From Longimicrobiales bacterium (lineage in GTDB: Bacteria; Gemmatimonadota; Gemmatimonadetes; Longimicrobiales; Gaopeijiaceae): a stretch of 64,000 bases of DNA. Position numbers and translations under genes: made by a program. The notes beneath the pieces were generated by a model. The model was given only the letters and a program-made list of their open reading frames with translations, did not search any database and was not told the DNA's origin. How positions within the stretch are numbered: the first letter of the stretch is position 1; each line of letters begins with the position of its first letter. Positions 770-64,000 of the stretch are shown here, in pieces. The DNA is taken from positions 288,001 through 352,000 of the forward strand of contig CBDBCF010000001.1 in assembly GCA_965202985.1 (NCBI GenBank), in the 5' to 3' direction.

Positions 770-1104
770 TCGGGATGTCCTACCAAACGCGAACGCGGAC
801 GATCCTGGCCCCTGAAGTCCCCGGAGCTGATCAACCAGGAGGGAGTCATCACGGAGTCGGTCAGGACGCTGATTGAGGCTAGGGACTGGGCAGATCGCCG
901 GTGCAATAGTAGTCCGATCCAATTTTGATTGATCAAATTTTGATTTTGGAAAGATCGAAAGAGGGACCCAAAACAAACAGGTAGTGAAGTGCTACACGCC
1001 TGGCTCATGGTCCTCTATCGTAATGCATCGCAAGAGGGCCCTTCCGGCCCACAACCTACCGGACCGCGTCTCTCGGCGTCGGCTCCGAAAAGACAGGAGA
1101 AACA

Positions 1105-1551
1105 ATGAACACTTTAGTTCGAATCGTCTATGATACCAACGTGCTGGTGTCCGCGCTCGTTGTGTCGGCCGACAAATGGGCTTGGCATCGGCAGCTCTGG
1201 CAGAGCGGCCGAGTCATCCCACTCGCAAGTCAACAGACGACGGATGAGTTTGTACGGGTACTGTCATACAAGAAGTTCGCCCTGGAGCCTGCGGATAAGC
1301 GGGAACTTCTGGCGGCGTATTCGGTGTACTCGGAGGCCATTGAAGTGTCGAATGCGCCCGCTACACCCAGTGTTCGCGATGATTCTGACCGACCGTTCCT
1401 TGAGCTTGCCCTCGTCGGACGGGCCGACGCTCTAGTGACCGGCGACCGCGATCTTCTGGAAGTCGCCCCAACGTTCTCCGTGCCTATCCTTACGCCTCGA
1501 CAGTTCGCGAATGGCTTCGAGAACGAGGAGGGTAGGTCGGCTCGGCTCTAG
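1105..1551 (+). CDS. PIN-domain (PIN_3/VapC-like) toxin
   Basis: Motifs IVYDTNVLVSAL, DDSDRPFLELA and LVTGDRDLL; AGGAG RBS upstream. Confidence 0.9.
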   Translation: MNTLVRIVYDTNVLVSALVVSADKWAWHRQLWQSGRVIPLASQQTTDEFVRVLSYKKFALEPADKRELLAAYSVYSEAIEVSNAPATPSVRDDSDRPFLELALVGRADALVTGDRDLLEVAPTFSVPILTPRQFANGFENEEGRSARL

Positions 1552-1781
1552 TCTTGGGCAGCGGAACTGCGCGCCCACTCCACGGCGTCGGCGACATCCT
1601 CCTCGGTGATGCCCATTTTGGCCAGCTTGGCGCGAACCGCAGCAGCGCGAACGACCTGGACGGGCGTCAAGACGATGCGGTCGGCCTCCATGGCCACCTC
1701 GAGGTACTCCGTGCCTTCTAGTCTGCCGATCACGGCCTCGGGCAACGTGAGTTGGTTGTCGGACGATAGTCTGGCCAGCAT
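1548..1781 (-). CDS. AbrB/MazE/SpoVT-family antitoxin (77 aa)
   Basis: MLARLSSDNQLTLPEAV...RIVLTPV swapped-hairpin pattern and C-terminal VRAKLAKMGITEEDVADAVEWAR; GGAG upstream of the ATG at 1781. Confidence 0.85.
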   Translation of the reverse strand: MLARLSSDNQLTLPEAVIGRLEGTEYLEVAMEADRIVLTPVQVVRAAAVRAKLAKMGITEEDVADAVEWARSSAAQD

Positions 1782-1937
1782 AAGCTCTCGCTCCGTCGTT
1801 GCCGCAAAATGGAATGGACTTGATGAAGATAACCTCCGCATCCCGCCGGACGCAAGCTTTAATCCAGCAGGGCAGGCACGACTCCGCGGACCGACAAAGC
1901 GGCCGTCGCCGCATTCCGGGACACGGGGCCGGGGCCA

Positions 1938-2085
1938 CTGGCGGGCCTGCCTCAAGGCTGCCTGCCCTGCTGACCCCCGGACGCTCCGCGTTCGTTCGCT
2001 AGGAGAAGTGGTGGTCGCCCACGGTGGCGCTTCATTGGAGGAGGTCGTCGTGCTGCTGGTCGGCGTCAAGCGGGTGGAGCCATGA
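1938..2085 (+). pseudogene. Remnant of the 3' end of a PglZ-like (BREX) gene
   Basis: Frameshifted pieces LLTPGRSAFVR and GEVVVAHGGASLEEVVV match the PglZ C-terminal HGG.S.EE motif. The stop overlaps an ATGA that starts the brxA-like remnant. Confidence 0.65.
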
Positions 2086-2452
2086 GCGGCCCGGCGTCGC
2101 AGTCGGTCGCCGGACGCGACCGGGCACACTTGGTCAGCCCTGGTCCAGGTCGGTAGGCTACTCCGTCCCCAGGGGGTTGCCGCGACCGTCCAGGTCCGCC
2201 GTCGCGTTCAAGAGCAGTACGGCGAACGCCCCACTGTCGCCTGGCCGTGCGTCGCATCGTGCGGTCATTCGTGGACTGGAGGAGGCCTGGCCGACACCGA
2301 GACGCGGAGCCGGTACGTCGCCGGCGATCCCGTGCCAGTTCGCCCCAGCGCTCGTCGCCTGGCTGGCGGAGGCCGCCCTTCACGTTCGGGGCGGCGAGCT
2401 CGCTGTGCCCTTCCAGGCGCTACTCGGACAGCCCGGCCTCTTTCCCTTCGCG
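2082..2452 (+). pseudogene. Decayed, internally deleted second copy of the brxA-like gene
   Basis: 2107-2142 matches ~4-41 and ~2143-2452 matches ~358-665 (e.g. gagcagtacggcga, ctggccgacaccgagacgc, gccggtacgtcgccggcgatcc, cagcccggcctctt); multiple indels. Confidence 0.9.
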
Positions 2453-2592
2453 GGCATCCGTATGGCCGTCTGGGCTGTTCCGCTGTGGAGGGCACGCGGT
2501 CACTTGCAACCGGAAAGATGTGGGGCCATGTTCCCTTCCCCACCGTCCAACGCCCCTGCTGACGCCAGCTCGTCCGATCGAGAGGCTGACCG

Positions 2593-3006
2593 TTGATCGA
2601 CTCCACGCTGCCGCAGAACATCGAGAGTCCGGAGAAGGCCGTTGCTTCGGGTACCGGTCCTGCGAGGGTTCTGCGCAAGATACTGAGAACTTGGCGGTTG
2701 GACGGTCAGGACGAAGCGATGGCGGCCTTGCTCGGACTGGATGAATCCGACAATGCCCTCGCGCTCGACTTACTGGCCGGGCGTGGCGAGCTGCGAGGGC
2801 GTGATGTAGAAGACCGACTTGTTTGTCTGTATCAGATCAGAAAGACGTTGCACTCGCTCCTTCGGGACGAGCAAGTAGAGAACGAGTGGCTCCGGGAGCG
2901 ACATCCTGGACTGGAGGGCAAGCGCCCAATGGACCTGATGCTGAAGGGGTCCATGGAGAACCTGCTGCTCGTTCGGGACTACGTGGAAGCGATCGCGGGC
3001 CTATAG
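2593..3006 (+). CDS. Xre/MbcA/ParS-type (DUF2384-like) antitoxin
   Basis: C-terminal ENEWLRERHPGLEGKRPMDLMLKGSMENLLLVRDYVE and N-terminal HTH-like AMAALLGL. Confidence 0.8.
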   Translation: MIDSTLPQNIESPEKAVASGTGPARVLRKILRTWRLDGQDEAMAALLGLDESDNALALDLLAGRGELRGRDVEDRLVCLYQIRKTLHSLLRDEQVENEWLRERHPGLEGKRPMDLMLKGSMENLLLVRDYVEAIAGL

Positions 3007-3008
3007 TC

Positions 3009-4253
3009 ATGCACGAGCCGAATCGACCACAAGACGACGACCGACGGTTTCTCACCCGAGTCGTGCTGCGCAACTACAAGAGCATCGCGGCGGCAGACGT
3101 CTCTCCTTCCCAAGTCTCGTTCCTGGTAGGACCCAACGGCTCCGGCAAGAGCAACTTCCTTGATGCGCTGCGCTTCGTGGCGGAGTCATTGCGATCAACG
3201 ATGGATCATGCGATCCGCGAACGAGGAGGAATCAACGTAGTCCGAAGGCGATCCAGAGGACACCCCAACCACTTTGGCATTCGCATTGACTTCCGTTCAG
3301 CGCAATTTCGGGGTCGTTATGCGTTCACGGTGGGAGCCAAGGCGGGTGGCGACTATGAAATACGGGAAGAAGAATGCTACATCAAGACGACCGAAGATCC
3401 TACCTACGACTACTACAGCGTGAAGGGCGGTAACGTCCAGCAGAGCACGCTTCAAGTGCCTCCCCGCGCTCACCCTCGTCGTTTGTACCTAGTTGCAACA
3501 TCTGGAATCGAACCTTTCGGACAACTGTACGACGCGTTTCTTGAAATGGGATTCTACAACCTGGTCCCAGAGGTCATTCGGAGTCTCCAGCCGCCGGGAC
3601 CAGGCGACCTCTTGGCCAGAGACGGCAGGAACGCGGCTGGCGTCTTGGCCAATTTGGCAGCGCGCTCCCCGACGTTCAAGAAACGCATCGAAGATTACCT
3701 TGGCCGCATCGTGCCCGGCGTGGTCGGAGTGGAACGAGTGGTAGCGAGGGATAGGGAAACGCTTGAGTTCGACCAGAAAGTAAAGGGAGCGCAACACCCG
3801 TGGCGGTTCGGCGCAACCAACATGTCCGACGGCACGCTTCGAGCGTTCGGAGTCCTGCTCGCGCTCTTTCAGAGTGGGCGAGACGGGATCGGCTTGGCGC
3901 AACCCTTTATTGGGATCGAAGAACCGGAGCTGGCGGTGCATCCAGCTGCGACGGCCGTGCTTTTGGATGCGCTTCGAGAGACAGCCCGGCACTCTCAGGT
4001 GTTGGTCACCAGTCACAGCGCCGACCTTCTCGACAATGTAGGAACCTCCGACGATTCGGTGCTGGCGGTGCTGGCCGAAGATGGAGTCACACGCATAGGC
4101 CCGCTGGACGAGGCCGGACGTTCGGCGCTCAAGAAGGGGCTCTTCACCGCCGGTGAACTCCTTCGCGTGGACCAGCTGATACCGGACCCGAACAGCACGA
4201 ACCTGAAGCCGCAGCAGCTCCCATTGTTTGGATCCGGTAAAGGGGCCGGATGA
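3009..4253 (+). CDS. ABC-type ATPase (AAA_21/AAA_15 family)
   Basis: LRNYKSI, Walker A GPNGSGKS, signature MSDGT, Walker B IGIEEPE, H-loop TSHS. Confidence 0.92.
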   Translation: MHEPNRPQDDDRRFLTRVVLRNYKSIAAADVSPSQVSFLVGPNGSGKSNFLDALRFVAESLRSTMDHAIRERGGINVVRRRSRGHPNHFGIRIDFRSAQFRGRYAFTVGAKAGGDYEIREEECYIKTTEDPTYDYYSVKGGNVQQSTLQVPPRAHPRRLYLVATSGIEPFGQLYDAFLEMGFYNLVPEVIRSLQPPGPGDLLARDGRNAAGVLANLAARSPTFKKRIEDYLGRIVPGVVGVERVVARDRETLEFDQKVKGAQHPWRFGATNMSDGTLRAFGVLLALFQSGRDGIGLAQPFIGIEEPELAVHPAATAVLLDALRETARHSQVLVTSHSADLLDNVGTSDDSVLAVLAEDGVTRIGPLDEAGRSALKKGLFTAGELLRVDQLIPDPNSTNLKPQQLPLFGSGKGAG

Positions 4254-4838
4254 TCACGATCGCCTCCATAGTCGAGGGGCACGGCGAGGTAGCGGCTCTG
4301 CCTCTGCTCCTGCGACGCATCGCCGGACAGGTGGCGGCAGGGCGCGTTGTCAACGCTTCACGCCCATTTCGGGTTCGGCGCCAGAACTTCCTCAAGCCCG
4401 ACGAGGTCGAACGCAGCGTAGAGTTCGTCGCCAACCGATCCGGGGTGGACGGAAGGATACTGATACTGCTGGACGCGAACAGCGACTGCCCAAAGACGCT
4501 TGCGGCCGAGATTGTCGAGCGTGCTCGGCAAGCTCGGGGCGACCGGGCCATACAGGTCGTATTGGCCAAGGTGGAGTACGAGGCGTGGTTTCTGGCCGCG
4601 GCCGAATCCGTGGCCGATCACAGGGGCATCAAACCCGATGTCGTCTCTCCTTCCAACCCCGAGGCCGTCCAAAGATGCGAAAGGGTGGATCAGCAAACGG
4701 ATGGAGCCTGGGCGCTCGTACAGCCCATCGACCGACCAGCCAGCGTTGACCGCCGTCTTCGACATGGATGTCGCCCGCAAGCGAGCGGCCTCGTTCGACA
4801 AGCTGTACCGCGCCGTGGAGTCCCTGCTGGTGGATTGA
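4250..4838 (+). pseudogene. DUF4276-like (TOPRIM-related) protein, frameshifted near 4670
   Basis: IVEGHGE, LLDANSDCP and EYEAWFLA lie in one frame; DAKGWIS...YSPSTDQPALT...SFDKL lie in another. Removing one base at 4670-4673 restores 195 aa. Start overlaps the ATPase stop (ATGA). Confidence 0.8.
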
Positions 4839-4946
4839 CGGGGCCGGGTGGGCTTCACCCGCCGGAAGCTTGCGACCTATCGCGAGAAGTAGTACGATGT
4901 TTCCAGAGATCGGTCTTGTCCCAGCACTACGGAAGAGGTCCGCGAC

Positions 4947-6149
4947 ATGATCGCCGAATCAAGCCCATTTGCTCCGGGAGCGCCGGTTCCGGCCGAGCTT
5001 TTCGTCGGGCGCCGGGGCGAAATCGAGCACGTCCGCGGCTTGGTGCGAGCCGCAAGGGACGGCCGGACCAGGGTGGGCTTCGTCAGCGGGGAACGCGGCA
5101 TCGGCAAGAGTTCCTTGGCTGGATTCGTCCGGTGGCTCGCCGAACGTCACGACGGAGTCGTCGGCTGTCACGTCTACTTGGGCGGCGTGCAAACCCTGGA
5201 GGGGATGCTGCAACGGACCTTCGACCGCCTGCTGAAGGACAGCATCGAACGCCCATGGCACGAGCAGATGCGCGATTCCCTGGGCGAACGAGTTCGCAGC
5301 GTCGGCCTCTTCGGCGCCACGCTCGAGCTTCGGCTCGGTAGCGACGACCTGCAAGTCATCGAGCGCAACTTTGCTCATTCGATTCGGGATTTTCTCAAGA
5401 AGACGGGGAACAAGAAAGCCCTCTTGCTGATTCTCGACGACGTCAACGGACTGGCCGATTCGGTGCAGTTCGCCAACTGGCTCAAGAGCACCGTGGACGA
5501 GATTGCCACGTCGCGGCACCGGACCCGACTGTGCGTTCTGATGGTCGGCCTGGACGAGAGACGGCGGCAAATGATCGCCGGACAGCCTTCCCTGGCGCGC
5601 GTCTTCGAGCTGGTCAAGATCGCCCCGTGGTCTGCCGACGAGGTCGAAGAGTTCTATCGGCAGTCGTTTCGTTCCTCTGGTGCGGAGGCGTCTCCCCGAG
5701 ACTTGGACCTGCTAGTGGACTTCACGGGCGGGCTTCCCGTCTTGGCTCACGAGATCGGCGACGCCGTTTGGCGCGTCGCTCGGACCCCGGCCCTCACGCG
5801 GAGCGATATCGAGACGGGCATTGTTCTGGCCGCCGCAACCGTGGGCAGCAAGTACTTGGGACCCCAGGTCTTGGCTGCAACTCGCAGCGCGCGTTATCGA
5901 TCGATCCTTGAAGCAATCGTGCGACACTTGGATGTTCGTTTCACCCGAACCGAGATCATCCAACACCTTGCGCACGACGATCAGCCAGTGCTGGACCACT
6001 TCCTGCGCCGAATGAGACAACTGGGCGTGCTGGAGGCGGTCCCCAAGACTCGAGGCGAGTACCAGTTCCCAAACCGTCTCTCATGGCTGTACTTCCGGAT
6101 GTCGGCCAGGTCGGCACCCCTTGTCGATCGCCAGAGCCTGCGCCCATGA
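4947..6149 (+). CDS. AAA_16/ORC1-like P-loop ATPase with C-terminal winged helix
   Basis: SPFAPG, FVGRRGEI, Walker A GERGIGKS, Walker B LLILDD, TGGLP motif. Confidence 0.85.
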   Translation: MIAESSPFAPGAPVPAELFVGRRGEIEHVRGLVRAARDGRTRVGFVSGERGIGKSSLAGFVRWLAERHDGVVGCHVYLGGVQTLEGMLQRTFDRLLKDSIERPWHEQMRDSLGERVRSVGLFGATLELRLGSDDLQVIERNFAHSIRDFLKKTGNKKALLLILDDVNGLADSVQFANWLKSTVDEIATSRHRTRLCVLMVGLDERRRQMIAGQPSLARVFELVKIAPWSADEVEEFYRQSFRSSGAEASPRDLDLLVDFTGGLPVLAHEIGDAVWRVARTPALTRSDIETGIVLAAATVGSKYLGPQVLAATRSARYRSILEAIVRHLDVRFTRTEIIQHLAHDDQPVLDHFLRRMRQLGVLEAVPKTRGEYQFPNRLSWLYFRMSARSAPLVDRQSLRP

Positions 6150-6268
6150 CCAAGAACAGCCCGTTGCACGATGATTCACTCCGCAACGCCGGACTTGAAC
6201 AACAAGAGCTATACGGTTTGCTGTGGGTAAGCGCACACTTCAACAGGCTTGCTCGAAGAGGCTGATCA

Positions 6269-6643
6269 ATGCTTGATTCCACATTCTTGCAGAACATCGA
6301 GAGCCGAGAAAAGGAAGTTACCTGGGGGATGGTTGGGTCCCGGCGCCGACTCGATGCCGCGATTCTTACCGACCCCGACGTCACGGAGCTCTTGACTGCA
6401 CTGCGTGACCATCCAGCTGCCCGGACACAGCTTGTCGTCAGGATTGGCACTTTGGCAACCCTAGGTGGCGATCCCGATTACATCCACCGCTACGACCTAG
6501 CGATCTTCGCGTACCTTCGTGCACTGGACATCTTCGACCCCGATCTCGCTGCCGTGGCGGCGTCCAGCGTAGCGACGCTAGGCAACGTGTGGTGGTCGCG
6601 ACCACTTGCTCTCCGTCTCCTCGGGCTCTCGCATACCAGCTGA
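6269..6643 (+). CDS. Hypothetical protein (124 aa)
   Basis: ORF with GAGG RBS, co-oriented with the island genes; no motif recognised. Confidence 0.5.
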   Translation: MLDSTFLQNIESREKEVTWGMVGSRRRLDAAILTDPDVTELLTALRDHPAARTQLVVRIGTLATLGGDPDYIHRYDLAIFAYLRALDIFDPDLAAVAASSVATLGNVWWSRPLALRLLGLSHTS

Positions 6644-6676
6644 GATCGCACGACAACCACCTCCACCGAACCTCCA

Positions 6677-7237
6677 ATGCCCCCGAAGACCAAGACCTAC
6701 CAACTCCGCATAGCTCTGGAAGGCGCCCGGCCTTCTATCTGGCGACGGTTTCTCGTCCCGAGTTCGATCAGCCTGCCCATGCTCCACCACGTCCTGCAGA
6801 TCGTCATGGGGTGGCAGGATTGTCACCTGCACAGATTTGTCAAGGGCGATCGGCAGTTTTATATGCCGAGTCCCTGGTCCGATCCATGGGCTCCCGACTT
6901 GCTGGACGAAAGGAAGTATCGGCTCGACCAGCTGCTGACCAAGCCGAAGGACTGGATGAGATACGTGTACGACTTCGGCGACAACTGGCGGCACAAGATC
7001 ACGTTGCAGAAGGTCCTGCCTGCCGATCCGAAGCAACGGTTGCCGATCTGCCTTTCCGGCAAGCGTCGGTGCCCTCCCGAGGACAGCGGCGGACTGTGGG
7101 GCTACTACCACATGCTGGAGGTCGTCGCCGACCCGACGCACGAAGAACATGAACTGTATTCCGAATGGCTCGACGACGACTTTGACCCGGCAGACTTCGA
7201 CGTGAGCGCCGTGAACTTCGCACTGGGGATCCGCTGA
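6677..7237 (+). CDS. Plasmid pRiA4b ORF-3 family protein
   Basis: YQLRIAL...PSIWRRFLVP, LHHVLQIVMGWQDCHLHRF, YVYDFGDNWRH, CPPEDSGG. Confidence 0.92.
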   Translation: MPPKTKTYQLRIALEGARPSIWRRFLVPSSISLPMLHHVLQIVMGWQDCHLHRFVKGDRQFYMPSPWSDPWAPDLLDERKYRLDQLLTKPKDWMRYVYDFGDNWRHKITLQKVLPADPKQRLPICLSGKRRCPPEDSGGLWGYYHMLEVVADPTHEEHELYSEWLDDDFDPADFDVSAVNFALGIR

Positions 7238-7267
7238 GGACGTGGTTGCCGGCGCACCGTTGTGCCG

Positions 7268-8227
7268 CTACTCCGTCACATCCAGGCTCCACAGGCCGAA
7301 AATGTCGTTTCCTGCCGCTAGAAAGCGCCGCCGCGCCATGTCCAGGTAGTCCGGGCTGACTTCCACGCCGACGCTGTTGCGGCCCGCCAAGGCGGCGGCC
7401 AGCGACGTCGTGCCCGTTCCCAGGAACGGATCCAGAACCGTGTCGCCCACGAACGAGAACATGCGCACGAGGCGGTTGGCGAGTTCCAGCGGGTAGGGGG
7501 CGGGATGGTCGCGGGTCGATGCGCCCGGCAATGTCCAAATCTGACTGAACCACTTCCGATGATCGGCCTCGGAAATGACGCTCATGGCTCGGGCCGCGAG
7601 CGAGGGGCTGCGGTAGCCGCCGGGCTTGCGTTGCATGAGAATGAACTCGATGTCGTTCTTGACGATGGCGTTCGGTTCGTATGGCTTGCCGAGGAAGCCG
7701 CCGGGTCCCATCTCGAACTCCGCGTTGGCGATCTTGTGCCAAATGATCGGTGCCAAGTTGTCGAACCCCATCTTGCGACAGGATTCCTGAATGCTCGCAT
7801 GGAGCGGATAGACGACGTGACGACCGTGCCGTCGCCGGGAAAGACAGACGTCTCCCACAACGATAATCAACCGACCTCCAGGCACTAGCAGCCGACTGCA
7901 CTCTCGCCACACCTTGGCAACCTCGGCCACAAATGCGTCGTAGTCGGCAACGCGACCCAGCTGGTCTGCGCCGTCCTTGTACTCTTTGAGCGTCCAGTAC
8001 GGCGGCGACGTAACGACCAAGTGAACCGGTTCCGTCACTACTTGCGAAAGCCACCGCGCGTCGCCCCGTATCATCCGATGGCGCGACGGCATCTCCCGCA
8101 GTGCATCCGCAACTCGTGCCACTTGCTCGGGGTCCCTGGCCATTTGCGGCAACGCGGTCTTCAGGGAGATCTCGGAAAGATCGACGCTCGGCAAGTGTTT
8201 GTCGACCAGCGCGGCCATCGTCTCCAT
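7268..8227 (-). CDS. Beta-class site-specific DNA methyltransferase (probably N4-cytosine)
   Basis: Catalytic VVTSPPY precedes HPAPYP and the SAM-binding VLDPFLGTGTT. Confidence 0.92.
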   Translation of the reverse strand: METMAALVDKHLPSVDLSEISLKTALPQMARDPEQVARVADALREMPSRHRMIRGDARWLSQVVTEPVHLVVTSPPYWTLKEYKDGADQLGRVADYDAFVAEVAKVWRECSRLLVPGGRLIIVVGDVCLSRRRHGRHVVYPLHASIQESCRKMGFDNLAPIIWHKIANAEFEMGPGGFLGKPYEPNAIVKNDIEFILMQRKPGGYRSPSLAARAMSVISEADHRKWFSQIWTLPGASTRDHPAPYPLELANRLVRMFSFVGDTVLDPFLGTGTTSLAAALAGRNSVGVEVSPDYLDMARRRFLAAGNDIFGLWSLDVTE

Positions 8228-8826
8228 TAGCCGGTCCCAATCGACGGATTTCTCTTGCGAACCTGGTCAACTAGGCAATCGAAGAAATCTCGCCCCGCTT
8301 CTTCGCCGGACACAATTCGGGGGCCGTGCGCAAAGTCGACCTCGACGAACCACGACGCCTCGATCATGCCAGTACTCCACGACGGCGGGCGACGGCCAGA
8401 GAGCCGACGAAGTCGATTCCGCAACAGCTCCGACCACGTGCACTTGTGCCGCGAACTGAATGCGTCTTCGGCAATGTTGAACACCATTACGTATCCGGTC
8501 ACGATTTCCGGAGAATACATCTGCACATTGGTCACTTCCCCGATCAGGTCGTCGATTCGGTTGGGTACCGTTCCTCCGGGATTCCGAAGCAGTGACTTCA
8601 ACGAAACAACCAACCTCGGCTTGCGGTCTGCGTTCCAAGATACATCCCAAGACTTGCGTCTCGCACCACCGGCCACGGAAGCCTCCGTGAGTGCACCTAC
8701 AAGGCCCCGTCGCGCAAGCTCCTTGACGACTAACTGAGCCAGGGCTTGCAACCTTGCGGTTGAAGTCGGCTTCTCTTCGACGATGGCGATTCTGTGCAGG
8801 TCGGCGATCGCGTTCTGGAGGCTCAT
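8227..8826 (-). CDS. Putative type II restriction endonuclease (PD-(D/E)xK fold)
   Basis: KSWDV...VVSLKS...PNRIDDLIGE pattern; stop overlaps the methyltransferase start (TAATG). Confidence 0.7.
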   Translation of the reverse strand: MSLQNAIADLHRIAIVEEKPTSTARLQALAQLVVKELARRGLVGALTEASVAGGARRKSWDVSWNADRKPRLVVSLKSLLRNPGGTVPNRIDDLIGEVTNVQMYSPEIVTGYVMVFNIAEDAFSSRHKCTWSELLRNRLRRLSGRRPPSWSTGMIEASWFVEVDFAHGPRIVSGEEAGRDFFDCLVDQVRKRNPSIGTG

Positions 8827-8980
8827 GTGTTTGAACCTAACGTGATGTCCGCCCTGCCGCGACTGCCGGCCGATCCTTCGCGGGAGGCCGACTGGTCGGC
8901 CCAAGACCCCCTGTCACACCCCCTCGCTATCCTTCGCCGTTTTCTGTCTTCCCCCCGGAACCAGAAGGAACCGCGCCACC

Positions 8981-9568
8981 GTGACAGGCCCACCCCACTT
9001 CGCCCGCACCCAGACCCGCCGTCGCCGCGCCGCCACCCAGCCCACTGCCGTCCGCGACACGCTCTTCCCCCGCCCGGCTCCGCGCCTCCCTCGCCTCGCC
9101 TTGCTGGCCGCCACGGCACTCGCCGCCGGCCTGGCCACCGGATGCGCGGGCAAGTTCATGGATCGCGGGCCGAACCCGGCGTTCTGCGACACCTCCAAGG
9201 TCTACGCGGGGATCGACGCGGGCGTGGGGGCGGCGGCGCTCTTCTGGGGGCTCCAGGTCGACATGGACCGCATGACCAACCACTTCACCTTCAAGCGGCT
9301 GGAAGACGGATCGCTGGGCGGCGCTTACGAGGCGATCCAGCTGGCCGCGGGGGTCGTCGCGGGGGCGTCGTTCTTGGTCGAGGCGGGGCGCAGCTTCAAG
9401 GCCGCCAACCGCTGCATCCGCATCAAGCGCCTGCAGGACTCGCAGCGCAGGGACGCGGAGCAGACAGACACGCTCCGAACCAGGATGGACACGGCGACGG
9501 CGCCCGACCGAGCCGCGTTGGCGCGCGCCGAGATGCGGGCCGTCCGCAACAGGCTCCGCAATCGCTGA
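8981..9568 (+). CDS. Hypothetical lipoprotein/membrane protein
   Basis: Lipobox-like LATGC after a hydrophobic stretch, two further hydrophobic segments; stop overlaps the next start (TGATG). Confidence 0.6.
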   Translation: MTGPPHFARTQTRRRRAATQPTAVRDTLFPRPAPRLPRLALLAATALAAGLATGCAGKFMDRGPNPAFCDTSKVYAGIDAGVGAAALFWGLQVDMDRMTNHFTFKRLEDGSLGGAYEAIQLAAGVVAGASFLVEAGRSFKAANRCIRIKRLQDSQRRDAEQTDTLRTRMDTATAPDRAALARAEMRAVRNRLRNR

Positions 9569-47718: not shown

Positions 47719-48027
47719 TCACTCTGTCTGCGCCTGGGCGTCCGGCGCGGCGGCAGTGCGCTCGAGAAGGACGGCGACAGACTCGCTCAGCCCACGGAGC
47801 ACGGCGTCGCGCTGCCGGCCCGCTTCCATGAGTTCGCCGATCCGCCGGTCCAGGCGTTGCTCCACTCGATCGATTCGTTCCTCCACTCGGCTGATCCGCG
47901 CCTCCATCCGCATCTCCAATCTGTCCATCTGCGTGCCAAGCACCGTCCAGAAGACCCAGAAAGCCGCCGCCAGCGCCGTCGCGGTTCCCGCCACCGCCGG
48001 CCACCGTTCCACCAACCACGTTCGCAC
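47719..48027 (-). CDS. Small protein with one TM helix and a coiled coil
   Basis: GAGGAGG RBS; heptad pattern MDRLE/ISRVEE/IDRVEQ. Confidence 0.7.
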   Translation of the reverse strand: MRTWLVERWPAVAGTATALAAAFWVFWTVLGTQMDRLEMRMEARISRVEERIDRVEQRLDRRIGELMEAGRQRDAVLRGLSESVAVLLERTAAAPDAQAQTE

Positions 48028-48239: not shown

Positions 48240-48268
48240 TTGACGGCCGAACGCTCTCAAGCGATACT
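48240..48268 (+). promoter_or_regulatory. Putative sigma-70 promoter of the NTPase cassette
   Basis: TTGACG-17 bp-GATACT, about 60 bp upstream of the ATG at 48330. Confidence 0.55.
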
Positions 48269-48329
48269 GAAGGATCGTCCGGCGACCACCCCAGAGTCGC
48301 GAAAGCCGCATGCTCTAACCTTCGGCGTC

Positions 48330-50729
48330 ATGACAACAGCAGAAGAAACGATCACGAAAGCCGAAAAGTTGCTTGCGAAAGGCCACGCAAAGGAGCCCCA
48401 GCAACTCTTGACCGATCTTATTCAGCAGATGAACGCAACCGCCCTCTCTGATTGGCGCGCCGACCTTCTCAAGACGATCGACAAGTTTCAGCCGAAGTAC
48501 CGTCGAAAACTGTTGCAGCTTCTAGATCGCAAGAAGGTCACACCATCCGTTGTCCGCGAGTCCGCCACCGTTGCCTACCAGGCTCCGGTGACCTCAGCAA
48601 CTCCCGGCGACTTGCCCGGCGAAGACGCCTTCCGGCGGGATCTTGCAATACTTTCCGAGCGGCACATATTTCAATGGTCAAGCCACTACGATGCATGCCT
48701 AGCACGACACTTTGATATTTACTTCGCGCATCTGAAACAAACACCACCGGCCAAACACTATGCGGAATCCGCTCGAAGGCTCCTGCGTGAACACGCTCAC
48801 GACATCTTTTCCAAGGGCTATGGGTTTCAAGTAGAGCGCGTGGGGCAACCAACTGCAATGCAGAAATCGATTGGTGGACTCGCGCGATTTCTTGAACTTC
48901 CGCTTGCATACTACTCCGCACGATCATCCGACGCTGTCGATCGCGTCTCGATCCGGGCCCTTCGAGCTCTCTTCTCGTCTTCTCTGCTTGGCATCATGCA
49001 GGGATACGAATCGATCAAATTCGATCTCGGCACAGGCGCTACGGTACTGCCCCGCCACTTCAAGAGACTCGCCTACTATCTCGCGTTCCTGGAGCCCGCC
49101 GTGGCGGCGAAGGTCGTCGACCTCATCACCGAAGACGATGTGGCCGATCGGCTCCGTCGGGCGGTCATTCCTCTGCTCGAATCACTGGACACCCTGATTC
49201 GCAAGGATCACGAGGACTACTATCCGCTTCCCATCTTCGGTCGCTATCTCGATTCGCAGGGTCGGTTCGAGATCGGCGTGCGGGCACCCCAATCCGTGAC
49301 GTCGCGCTATGCGATCGAGGCGCACGCCTACTTGAACTATGAGCATGCTACTCCGTTGGTACTCGACGAAGCGCTGGCAAGTGGCGTCGCGCTTGTCGTG
49401 GCACCCTTGCCGCCCGATGTCGCGGCGCACGTATCGTCAAATCAACGCTTGGCCGATATTGTGGTCAAGACCAGCAGACCGCAAGAAGATGTGATTCAAG
49501 CAGCGGTCCACGCCTGGGATCGGGCGATCTATTCGCTCCGCAGCAAGCGTGCACAGACGACACCGTACAACATTGCAAGAGAGTTTCCTTTACGTGAGCC
49601 GGCCAAGGCCAAATTCTATCATGTCCAGCGCAACAGTGTGCGGGACCTGCTCCGGACGTTCGATCGCAAGAACGGGGTAAGGTTGTGGTGCAGCGTCAGG
49701 CGAAGCGGCAAGACAACCGCGTGCTTCGACTTCGACTTCACTGCTGGCGATTCCGCGATAGTCCCCCAGACATGTGGTACCAAGCCAACTCCAAACGGGC
49801 GGTTGTTCTACGACAGAATATGCGATGCCGTGGCGTTGCAAGCCCCGATCGGCAACGACTTCGTGACCAACCTTGTCCAGGAATGCGCGCCGGTTCCAAT
49901 GGAAGGCGGTCAACGAATCGTCTTTGTCGTCGACGAATACGAGACGTTGTTTGGGTATTTGCAAAGCGCAGCCGACCAGAACAGATTCCTGCGCTACACG
50001 ATCGTTCAACCTCTTCTCAATCAACTTGTGGAATTTGCTCGCGACAATTTGCTGGTGTTTCTGGGCCAACAACCGGACGCCCACTTCATTCTCATGGACC
50101 AGAACCAGCTTGCTCCCTACGTCGAACAGGATCGTTTTCCATTGTTCGGACACGTCGAAGGAACCGGCGCCGGCGAATTTGGACGACTGGTCGGAAAAAT
50201 CCTCTCCGATCGGATCGAAGTAAGTCCAGGTTTTTTGGACGCGCTCTATCGCGAGACTGCTGGCCATCCCTTTCTGACGGCCAACGTGCTGTGTGTGTTT
50301 GTGGACTGGCTGATTGAACAACAGTGGTCGCTTCGGGGATTGCGCCTTCGAGAACGTCATTTGCAATCCTTTCACGAACAGAAACACGGGTTTGAACAAC
50401 TGTCTCTTTACGAAGACTACAGCTTCTTTCGGAAAGCAGCACGACAAGCGATGAGCGAACGGGGTTATCGTTCGAACCGGTGGTTGTACACCGTATATTG
50501 GGTTCTTCGCGAGATTGCCATGTCGAATCGCTCGGAGTTGGCCGTGTCGCGCAACGACTTTGCAGAGGTCTTGGACCGCATCCCAGCCCCTGGGGACTTG
50601 CCGGACGCAAACGAGATTCTCCGCACGGCGTCGCAGGCCAACTTTCTTCGCGTGTCCGACGATCAAGTGAGCGTCAAGATTGGAACGTTGGGCAGGCTGG
50701 CGGCGTCGGTGCGGCCAGCGCAGGCGTGA
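48330..50729 (+). CDS. Large STAND-like P-loop NTPase with unrecognised ~430-aa N-terminal region (799 aa)
   Basis: Walker A variant SVRRSGKTT, Walker B IVFVVDEYE, STAND GxP motif TAGHPFL, C-terminal winged-helix-like end; atypical codon usage. Confidence 0.75.
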   Translation: MTTAEETITKAEKLLAKGHAKEPQQLLTDLIQQMNATALSDWRADLLKTIDKFQPKYRRKLLQLLDRKKVTPSVVRESATVAYQAPVTSATPGDLPGEDAFRRDLAILSERHIFQWSSHYDACLARHFDIYFAHLKQTPPAKHYAESARRLLREHAHDIFSKGYGFQVERVGQPTAMQKSIGGLARFLELPLAYYSARSSDAVDRVSIRALRALFSSSLLGIMQGYESIKFDLGTGATVLPRHFKRLAYYLAFLEPAVAAKVVDLITEDDVADRLRRAVIPLLESLDTLIRKDHEDYYPLPIFGRYLDSQGRFEIGVRAPQSVTSRYAIEAHAYLNYEHATPLVLDEALASGVALVVAPLPPDVAAHVSSNQRLADIVVKTSRPQEDVIQAAVHAWDRAIYSLRSKRAQTTPYNIAREFPLREPAKAKFYHVQRNSVRDLLRTFDRKNGVRLWCSVRRSGKTTACFDFDFTAGDSAIVPQTCGTKPTPNGRLFYDRICDAVALQAPIGNDFVTNLVQECAPVPMEGGQRIVFVVDEYETLFGYLQSAADQNRFLRYTIVQPLLNQLVEFARDNLLVFLGQQPDAHFILMDQNQLAPYVEQDRFPLFGHVEGTGAGEFGRLVGKILSDRIEVSPGFLDALYRETAGHPFLTANVLCVFVDWLIEQQWSLRGLRLRERHLQSFHEQKHGFEQLSLYEDYSFFRKAARQAMSERGYRSNRWLYTVYWVLREIAMSNRSELAVSRNDFAEVLDRIPAPGDLPDANEILRTASQANFLRVSDDQVSVKIGTLGRLAASVRPAQA

Positions 50730-50759
50730 AACGAAACGGGAAGGAGGGGTAGGCGGACG

Positions 50760-51776
50760 GTGATCAAGGCGTCTGACGTAGTTGAGGATATCCGAAAGCG
50801 TCGAGGCAGCTCGAAAGAGCCAGTGCGGTTCTACTGGGTAACGGTGACTTCGCAGACCGAGCCCGCTGATCGAAGTGCGTTCGTGGACGCCGTACGGCAC
50901 CTGACATCGGATGAGGCGGCATGCTCGATCGCTTTGCGTACAGAACGGTTCACTCATCCAGACATGGTCATGGACGATCTCGCAAAGACGCTTGAAGAGA
51001 TCAAGAGCCAGGTGCTCGCGTCGGAATTGAAGGTGCGAGTTGAGAAGGCCGGATCACTGGACGTGGTCGTCGTGTCGCGAAAGAGCTTCGAGTTGGCCGT
51101 CAACACGTCGCCACTCCAACTGCCGGAGTGGTTTCCGGTGTCGCCTGAACAGGTCGTCAATGCTTCGGTGACCGACTTGACGCTGCGTGTGGCGGTGCCC
51201 CTGTCCCACGTCGACACGGGCGAGCTCTGTCGCTTGCTTTACGAGCTGGACCGTGGGTTGCTGAGGCGAATCAAGGCTGGATTGGACGCGGACCCGAAGT
51301 TGGTCAATCAATTTCTCACCGAGTGTCGGGACAGGACCAGGGGAGTGGCGTCTTATCAAGAGGTGCTGGTCGACGTCGAGAGGAAGCTGGACGACGTCCG
51401 GAATCCAAGGGACTATCGCCCGAGTAGGGCCGGAAGCTGTACTCTGGTGGGCCACATTTGGCACTTGGCCAATACGAAGTCAGCCAACGATCTGGTCAAG
51501 ATTGCGAAGAGCCTGGCCTGTGCGGCTGGGATGGGAGCTGCGAGCGTGGATGATTTCCCCGAGGCCCTGTTGACCGTGCTTGGTCGTCCCAGGATTCGGC
51601 ACGCGGACTCTCGATGGGCATACAACGTGATCATGAGCACCCAAGGCGCGTGTCAATTGATTACGGCAGCCGCGCACGCCGACCGCTACGGGCGGTACCC
51701 GGCCTGGTTGCTGCGGTCGTTGTCGCTGGACCTGCGGAGGTCCCTCGACGACGCCGTACGATTGCTGGCGAGTTGA
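50760..51776 (+). CDS. Hypothetical protein (338 aa), partner of the NTPase
   Basis: AAGGAGG RBS, 30 bp after the NTPase, same atypical composition. Confidence 0.75.
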   Translation: MIKASDVVEDIRKRRGSSKEPVRFYWVTVTSQTEPADRSAFVDAVRHLTSDEAACSIALRTERFTHPDMVMDDLAKTLEEIKSQVLASELKVRVEKAGSLDVVVVSRKSFELAVNTSPLQLPEWFPVSPEQVVNASVTDLTLRVAVPLSHVDTGELCRLLYELDRGLLRRIKAGLDADPKLVNQFLTECRDRTRGVASYQEVLVDVERKLDDVRNPRDYRPSRAGSCTLVGHIWHLANTKSANDLVKIAKSLACAAGMGAASVDDFPEALLTVLGRPRIRHADSRWAYNVIMSTQGACQLITAAAHADRYGRYPAWLLRSLSLDLRRSLDDAVRLLAS

Positions 51777-51792
51777 CCTCTTTCGAGCCGCC

Positions 51793-62989: not shown

Positions 62990-63055
62990 CGGGAGCGACT
63001 GCACTGGCGGCCGCGGACCCGTTAGCGGCCCCCCCGTGAGATCTCGCGGCACGCC

Positions 63056-63707
63056 TCAGTCGGGCGCAGTGAGATGAACAACCCGTTGTTCTTCCGGACG
63101 GATCGACGGCCGGAACCGGTGCTCGCTTTTCCGCAGCCCATCCGCATAGCCGTGGCCATCGTCGTCGTAGAAGTTCCGCAACACGAAGTCCATGAACAGG
63201 TGGGGCGTCAACGGAGCGGAGACGGGAATCCGGCAACCTCGATACTGCCCCAGCGTCATGTGGCACTTCGGGTGCGCGAAGGGAAGCTCTCGCCCGTTGG
63301 CATTGTAATCAATCCTCAACGGTAGTGGGGCCAAGCGACGCCCTACGATGTGAACGTGACGTTCGTCTCGGAGGTAGTCTTCCGGTGCATTCTGGAATTC
63401 GTCCAAGTCCGGTGCCGGCAGGAACGCCAATCGGTGACGGAGCAAACGGCGTTGCTCGAACTGATACCATCGCGCCGTCGAGCATCATTGCATTATAGGC
63501 CCTCATGGCAGCCATGTGTTTGTAGCTTCCAGCGTATTCCTTCATGCTCATCGCCCTGGCGATATGCTCGTGTCCTCCAAAGGAAACTGATGAGATCGAC
63601 CGCACGCGCTTTTGGGTTGGCCACTGCTGGGATCGGACAAGGCCCATCTCCATTAGACGGATCGTTATGCTCCGGATCTCGGCCACAACGCGATCAAGGC
63701 CCGTCAC
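63056..63707 (-). pseudogene. DUF2290-like protein, frameshifted near 63466
   Basis: YNAMMLDGAM lies in one frame; YQF...HRLAF, LRIDY, HPKCHMTLGQYRGCRIPVSAPLTP..F.DFVLRNFY lie in another. Confidence 0.8.
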
Positions 63708-64000
63708 GTCCTCGGTTTTCGCTCCCTGACAGCAAGTAGTCGTTCCAGTGCCGGGCGAAGATCTTCGACATCTTCTAGATACACTTCGCCTGCGTCAAGA
63801 TTGTCGCCAAACCGTCTCACAGCGCTTCGGAATTCCTTTACCACATCGGCACCCTCGCGAGACATATCCCGATGAACCACACGCATTCGATCCAGCTCCG
63901 CCTTGGTCGGATACCTGAATTTCAACCTGTATTCGTTCGCTTTTAATTGTGCATGTTCCTGAGACAGCTTCCGCATGTCTTCGCCTATGCCTGCCACGCG
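63704..64000 (-). CDS. C-terminus of a probable superfamily-1 helicase-like protein (5' part outside window)
   Basis: RVAGIG...LKFRYPTKAEL..MRVVHRD tail; 4-bp overlap with the DUF2290 gene; helicase motifs not visible in the window. Confidence 0.6.
   Translation of the reverse strand, partial: RVAGIGEDMRKLSQEHAQLKANEYRLKFRYPTKAELDRMRVVHRDMSREGADVVKEFRSAVRRFGDNLDAGEVYLEDVEDLRPALERLLAVRERKPRT

Follow-up and report, generated by a model that had tools for sequence, protein, structure and literature searches.

A widespread, uncatalogued two-gene module, probably defensive, that pairs a STAND-like ATPase with a Walker-less partner

Introduction

Among described systems, the closest in design to the locus reported here is the nSTAND2 (PF20702) operon, a mobile two-gene unit known from prediction only, in which the first gene has the architecture '??+STAND+wHTH' (wHTH, winged helix-turn-helix) and the second encodes an NTPase module with eroded NTP-binding motifs and a fused C-terminal HEPN domain (Kaur et al. 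2021, PMC8195603). The second protein is mostly 486-640 aa long, with wHTH and TPRs, or 736-768 aa long, with GT4, and nSTAND2 proteins keep the arginine finger (PMC8195603). In the accessible parts of two further sources, compact inactive STANDs are described in BREX (PMC12839542), and the HEPN Rx4-6H motif is defined, with mention of a family that lacks the Arg (PMC3710099). Here we analyze a pair of genes in a 64,000-nucleotide stretch of a Longimicrobiales bacterium genome (contig CBDBCF010000001.1, positions 288,001 to 352,000; the whole stretch is referred to as the window), which had originally been predicted, from the sequence alone, to be a two-gene conflict system. The pair is a genuine and widespread module, as yet uncatalogued, and appears to represent a compact version of the predicted design that couples an active STAND with an inactive STAND-effector.

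A co-inherited, mobile gene pair

The two genes are closely spaced, inherited together and mobile as a unit, which is enriched near defense genes. Both predicted open reading frames (ORFs) stand: gene 1 (48330..50729, + strand) begins with the ATG at 48330 and encodes 799 aa, and gene 2 (50760..51776, + strand) follows after 30 nt, begins with GTG and encodes 338 aa. DNA similarity to one genome of the same genus spans exactly 48330 to 51777, which supports the start codon of gene 1 and shows that the mobile unit consists of the bare gene pair. The GC content over the pair is 56-58%, compared with ~68-71% in the surroundings, and the GC content at third codon positions (GC3) is 0.64 in gene 1 and 0.73 in gene 2 vs 0.87-0.92 in five flanking genes, in agreement with the original reading that the pair has more A/T-ending codons than its neighbors.

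Homologs of the two genes occur together. The 76 genome loci comprised 61 intact pairs, 11 loci broken inside a contig and 4 cut by contig ends; gene 2 directly follows gene 1 in 72 of them, the exceptions being two contig ends and two truncated copies of gene 1. In metagenomes, gene 2 follows gene 1 in 69 of 74 cases, with at most 140 nt of contig left in all five misses. The pairwise identities of gene 1 and gene 2 co-vary (Spearman 0.77, 107 loci). The family is large: 499 relatives of gene 1 were found among 8000 scored candidates, and gene 2 forms 424 clusters at 50% identity. Of the 61 genomes around the source genome, three contain the pair: they are 3 of the 4 genomes of the genus, and none of the other 57 has it. 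These copies sit at different chromosomal sites. In an unrooted FastTree tree, 62 gene 1 proteins from 8 phyla cluster by phylum, with four phyla joined in one 100%-supported clade, a topology that fits putative transfer. The pair also occurs among insertion sequence (IS) elements on two conjugative plasmids of Klebsiella; on one of these, NZ_CP115715.1, the intact pair (L077:6768-10177) lies between IS6 and IS110 elements. At another locus (L071:5668-9711), TnsB-like and TniQ-like genes directly upstream of the pair, with a type IIG restriction-modification (R-M)-like gene downstream, suggest that the pair may be cargo of a Tn7-like element. In five Vicinamibacterales loci (L019-L022 and L029), the pair lies between a class I tRNA-synthetase gene and the signal peptidase II and Lgt genes, in an apparent housekeeping operon. 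One genome with a broken locus contains, far from that locus, a second, stop-containing gene 2 fragment (G368:C1:3104378-3104647).

Strict pairing, mobility and plasmid occurrence would also be expected of a toxin-antitoxin (addiction) module, in which gene 1 restrains a constitutively toxic gene 2 and defense is a side effect; HEPN toxins are common in such systems, according to the accessible part of the HEPN review (PMC3710099). However, gene 2 is intact next to an interrupted gene 1 at three loci (L038, L061 and L066), which would be lethal with a free toxin unless expression is lost as well, and the 11 broken loci of 76 indicate that the unit is readily lost. We consider this explanation very unlikely. 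The three loci with a split gene 1 favor activation of gene 2 over its neutralization.

Defense genes and an attached NYN gene

PADLOC profiles were run on the ORFs that lie up to 4 kb from the pair at 107 loci, leaving out near-duplicate loci and the final 16 ORFs listed. Defense-specific profiles were counted at E<1e-25, and generic ABC, kinase, RecQ-like, SAM-methylase and CRISPR-accessory profiles were excluded, for loci and control alike. Defense neighbors were detected at 26 of the 107 loci compared with 0 of 20 stretches of 8 kb picked arbitrarily in six host genomes (four had generic matches only), an enrichment (Fisher p=0.013) that involves a small control and loci that are not fully independent. 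The signal is uneven by batch (21/63, 2/24 and 3/20). The neighboring systems include Gabija at five loci, Lamassu at three and type III R-M at three related loci, as well as SIR2-HerA, Azaca, DRT4, PD-Lambda-2, PD-T7-1, AbiE, AbiU-like, other R-M and PADLOC candidate systems. Proximity to defense genes, which had been proposed as a check, is seen as an enrichment; most loci are without such neighbors, and so is the locus in the window, within 4 kb by the same scan.

No third gene is universal beside the pair. In 14 loci, those in the tree forming one actinomycete clade, the pair is joined by an NYN-domain gene whose acidic motifs look catalytic, and the pair together with this gene is a predicted three-gene subtype. 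The gene lies directly downstream of gene 2 in L040 (13172-14638), L042, L044, L048, L049, L053, L057, L073, L092, L099, L100, L102 and L103, and upstream of the pair in L097; its product, of ~487 aa, has the NYN domain at the N terminus, followed by a C-terminal region that is unassigned. In five loci (L044:14923-15663, L045, L092, L099 and L100), the NYN gene is followed by a fourth gene of ~250 aa with two N-terminal hydrophobic stretches; the one copy searched had no Pfam match.

Gene 1: an ATPase with a large N-terminal half

In the predicted model, gene 1 starts with a helical cap (aa 1-70; 48330..48545, + strand), followed by a linker, a helical domain (95-290) and an alpha/beta domain (295-405), the layout proposed initially; aa 410-799 form a STAND/Orc1-like ATPase with a helical domain and a winged helix. 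NTPases of the STAND/Orc1-Cdc6-like type have a GxP motif in the helical domain and then a winged helix, and gene 1 has both. The Walker A motif (aa 455-463; 49692..49718, + strand) conforms to S[VI]RRSGK[TS] and Walker B to DEY[ED]; both of these, and GHP, are at the positions first assigned to them and are kept in all 107 full-length pairs. In its STAND/Orc1-like fold, gene 1 has retained the motifs for ATP binding intact; it has no arginine at the usual finger position. The C-terminal TPR or WD40 sensor is indeed missing, as originally noted: the model ends in a winged-helix-like unit at aa 799, and the homologs end at the same place.

The N-terminal half has no Pfam or PADLOC match to a recognised effector domain, and a whole-protein fold search gave no known effector fold for aa 1-405, only generic helical-repeat matches. 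In 6 of the 76 genome loci, the cap is present as a tandem duplicate. We considered the cap as an effector-associated domain and rejected this, as its profile found nothing in the other ORFs of these 76 loci, among them those of the NYN proteins.

The best Foldseek matches of gene 1 are to Cdc6/Orc1 (E 1.4e-4), with TnsC lower; Cdc6/Orc1 and plant NLR matches tie (E 1.4e-4 to 2.5e-4). In the ESM Atlas, the first match is an unnamed 801-aa cluster, possibly that of gene 1 itself, and the neighbors carry AAA_22/nSTAND1 on 12-94% of members. The rank of Cdc6/Orc1 and TnsC, the integrase or transposase genes that adjoin some loci and the lack of defense neighbors at most loci could point to a non-immune role, with gene 1 as an Orc1/Cdc6- or TnsC-like DNA-binding ATPase that acts with an inactive partner for a mobile element or in transcriptional control. 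We regard this as highly improbable: the pair has no conserved transposase, integrase or target gene beside it, no flanking repeats stand out, searches of phage and viral collections, made with gene 1 only, returned no match, and the defense-neighbor enrichment argues against it.

Gene 2: a Walker-less core fused to a helical bundle

The gene 2 proteins are ~330-350 aa long and consist of two domains, in line with the division into an alpha/beta N-half and a helical C-half that had been proposed: an alpha/beta core without Walker motifs (aa 1-144) and a helical bundle (aa 145-338). R38, R60 and R107 are conserved in the core, and R220 and H306 are invariant in the bundle, including in the NYN-bearing loci. 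The original interpretation, a sensor/effector pair with gene 2 as a HEPN-fold protein that has lost its Arg, is partly supported. The His is invariant, and there is no Arg at -5 in 150 of 150 sequences, so that the HEPN Rx4-6H motif is lacking; at -7, there is Gln in 135 of 150 (including gene 2 of the window) and Arg in 15 of 150. As regards the upstream Ex3[KR] motif of HEPN, E/D164 is present in 147 of 150, with a mostly hydrophobic residue at +4 and a conserved Arg at +6. Of 142 gene 2 members, none matches a HEPN family at E<=0.1. The fold-match lists showed no prominent restriction endonuclease, death-fold or HEPN structure, which excludes none of them. The ESM Atlas had no usable match for gene 2.

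We examined gene 2 as a duplicate of the gene 1 ATPase, and the whole-profile comparison was negative; at the domain level, the two line up in register, W26 against W453 and strand 2 against strand 2, although with P=0.094. No longer fused forms of gene 2 were found, which is weak evidence. At one locus (L054:10333-12195), which is followed by Azaca genes, a single ORF, probably produced by a deletion, runs from gene 1 sequence (up to ~aa 580) into an almost complete gene 2.

The roles could be reversed: gene 2, as an inactive-STAND sensor with an RNA-binding bundle, would sense or regulate without catalysis, and the unassigned N-terminal half of gene 1 would be the effector or, in one clade, the attached NYN RNase would. 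This arrangement is unlikely. The invariance of H306 and R220 even where the NYN gene is present suggests a catalytic or ligand site in gene 2, and the whole-protein fold search showed no known effector fold for aa 1-405 of gene 1; the alpha/beta domain of gene 1 is nuclease-like in strand order, as read from secondary structure only, but has no conserved catalytic Lys.

Comparison with known systems

The pair resembles the nSTAND2 operon as a mobile two-gene unit, in which a gene for a putatively active STAND-like ATPase with a winged helix precedes one for a putative inactive NTPase. It fails membership on PF20702, wHTH/TPRs and the length of the second protein: PF20702 has no match among the window proteins, 58 homologs or 142 gene 2 members, and gene 2, at ~338 aa, lacks wHTH, TPRs and GT4. 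The arginine finger is also lacking at the position in gene 1. No complete nSTAND2 locus for comparison was detected, with 0 in 301 genomes, 0 in 401 and one fragment in 401; a 101-aa nSTAND2 fragment had P=0.4 and 0.24 against the two profiles.

The archaeal Walker-type ATPases PAB2304 (2qen) and SSO1545 (2fna) and Cdc6/Orc1 are 11-14% identical to gene 1, which differs from them in the additional 410-aa N-terminal region and the obligate partner. With Avs and bacterial NLR-like STAND receptors, as presented in the accessible part of PMC13581612, gene 1 shares the STAND-like switch with GxP and the defense-island context, but it has no C-terminal TPR/WD40 sensor or recognised N-terminal effector and requires a second gene. 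Gene 2 is similar to the BrxB-type inactive STAND, as far as described in the available text of PMC12839542, in that a compact Walker-less alpha/beta core without the AAA+ helical bundle is encoded beside an Orc1/Cdc6-like ATPase gene; in gene 2, unlike BrxB, this core is fused to a His-bearing bundle. The profile similarity to 20 BrxB sequences is not significant (P=0.15), and there is no conserved cluster of PglX, PglZ or BrxC by the pair and no PADLOC BREX operon. The bundle is similar to Arg-less HEPN of the Parep1/8 type, as outlined in the accessible part of PMC3710099, in the early acidic residue, late invariant His and conserved basic residues elsewhere.

The original note could not assign the pair to a named system, and neither could we. 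Below E 0.01, the two window proteins have no match in Pfam, PADLOC 2.0 or NCBIfam. No match of 35 gene 1 and 23 gene 2 homologs reached the Pfam cut-off, the only recurring sensible ones being to AAA/AAA_22, all weak and seen in 6 of the 35 gene 1 homologs. PADLOC gave one weak match to a PrimPol profile in 2 of the 58 homologs. Sequence searches of solved structures returned nothing below E 0.027, and a viral fold library nothing at E<=0.001. The pair was not described in the literature found by a search that excluded subscription journals and defense catalogs newer than PADLOC 2.0. The accessible part of PMC13581612 does not mention it, and motif searches of the supplement were empty, although the pair could be among the 589 clades of that survey; the available portions of PMC10853773 and 10.1101/2025.01.08.631966 had no match.

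Surroundings of the pair in the window

The picture of a cassette flanked by opposite-strand metabolic genes needs one amendment. An amidohydrolase gene lies to the left and an NAD-dependent epimerase gene to the right, all on the - strand, but the nearest left neighbor is a 102-aa ORF (47719-48027, - strand; GC3 0.81), with an N-terminal hydrophobic helix, a coiled-coil-like repeat and a weak HalX match below the cut-off, which is not kept beside other copies of the pair. The promoter ascribed to the cassette is a real sigma-70-like match (48240..48268, + strand; 9 of 12 positions) at chance level, with 1 site found vs 1.0 +/- 1.0 in shuffles. Only short repeat pairs flank the locus, none standing out, as seen without a control comparison, and an empty insertion site could not be defined because the genes that flank the pair here are dispersed in three genomes of the genus. 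The window contains more DNA of lower GC content (58-66%), at 1000-9000 and 63000-64000, which may be other acquired DNA.

Discussion

We assign a probability of roughly 0.7 to the reading that the pair is a two-protein defense system; the module is probably defensive, and the anti-invader system is probably of the anti-phage, abortive-infection type. We infer sensing, binding, oligomerization and RNase activity, and gene 2 may be a disguised RNA-cutting enzyme. Gene 1 would be the sensor and switch, with the recognition surface in the N-terminal half in place of C-terminal repeats. Upon an invader cue, gene 1 would bind ATP, oligomerize and recruit gene 2 via the Walker-less P-loop core of the latter, which carries the conserved R38, R60 and R107, whereas gene 1 lacks an arginine at the usual finger position. 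Clustering of the gene 2 bundles would then create a HEPN-like His site, with the missing Arg provided from elsewhere (R220 or R276), and the assembled site would cut RNA and arrest the cell. This full mechanism, in which gene 1 recruits gene 2 for a His-based RNase site, is a tentative proposal. It is quite unlikely that the pair goes as far as a back-to-front receptor, in which a finger-less NLR-like ATPase that has no repeat sensor and senses the invader with an N-terminal domain would fire only when assembled with a dead, shrunken duplicate of the same ATPase domain, the source of both the arginine and an Arg-less HEPN-type RNase.

Pfam, NCBIfam and PADLOC 2.0 do not detect this family, which comprises 424 gene 2 clusters at 50% identity and covers 8 phyla in the sampled tree. 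According to the Methods in the accessible text of PMC13581612, that STAND survey limited sensor analysis to C-terminal regions of at least 400 aa, which would place a repeat-less STAND such as gene 1 outside it. The pair bears on whether HEPN-like domains can function without the motif Arg. It is 3.5 kb long and is present in Pseudomonas, Acidovorax and Streptomyces that can be cultured, which makes it a small, tractable model for the design of an active STAND plus an inactive STAND-effector, so far only predicted.
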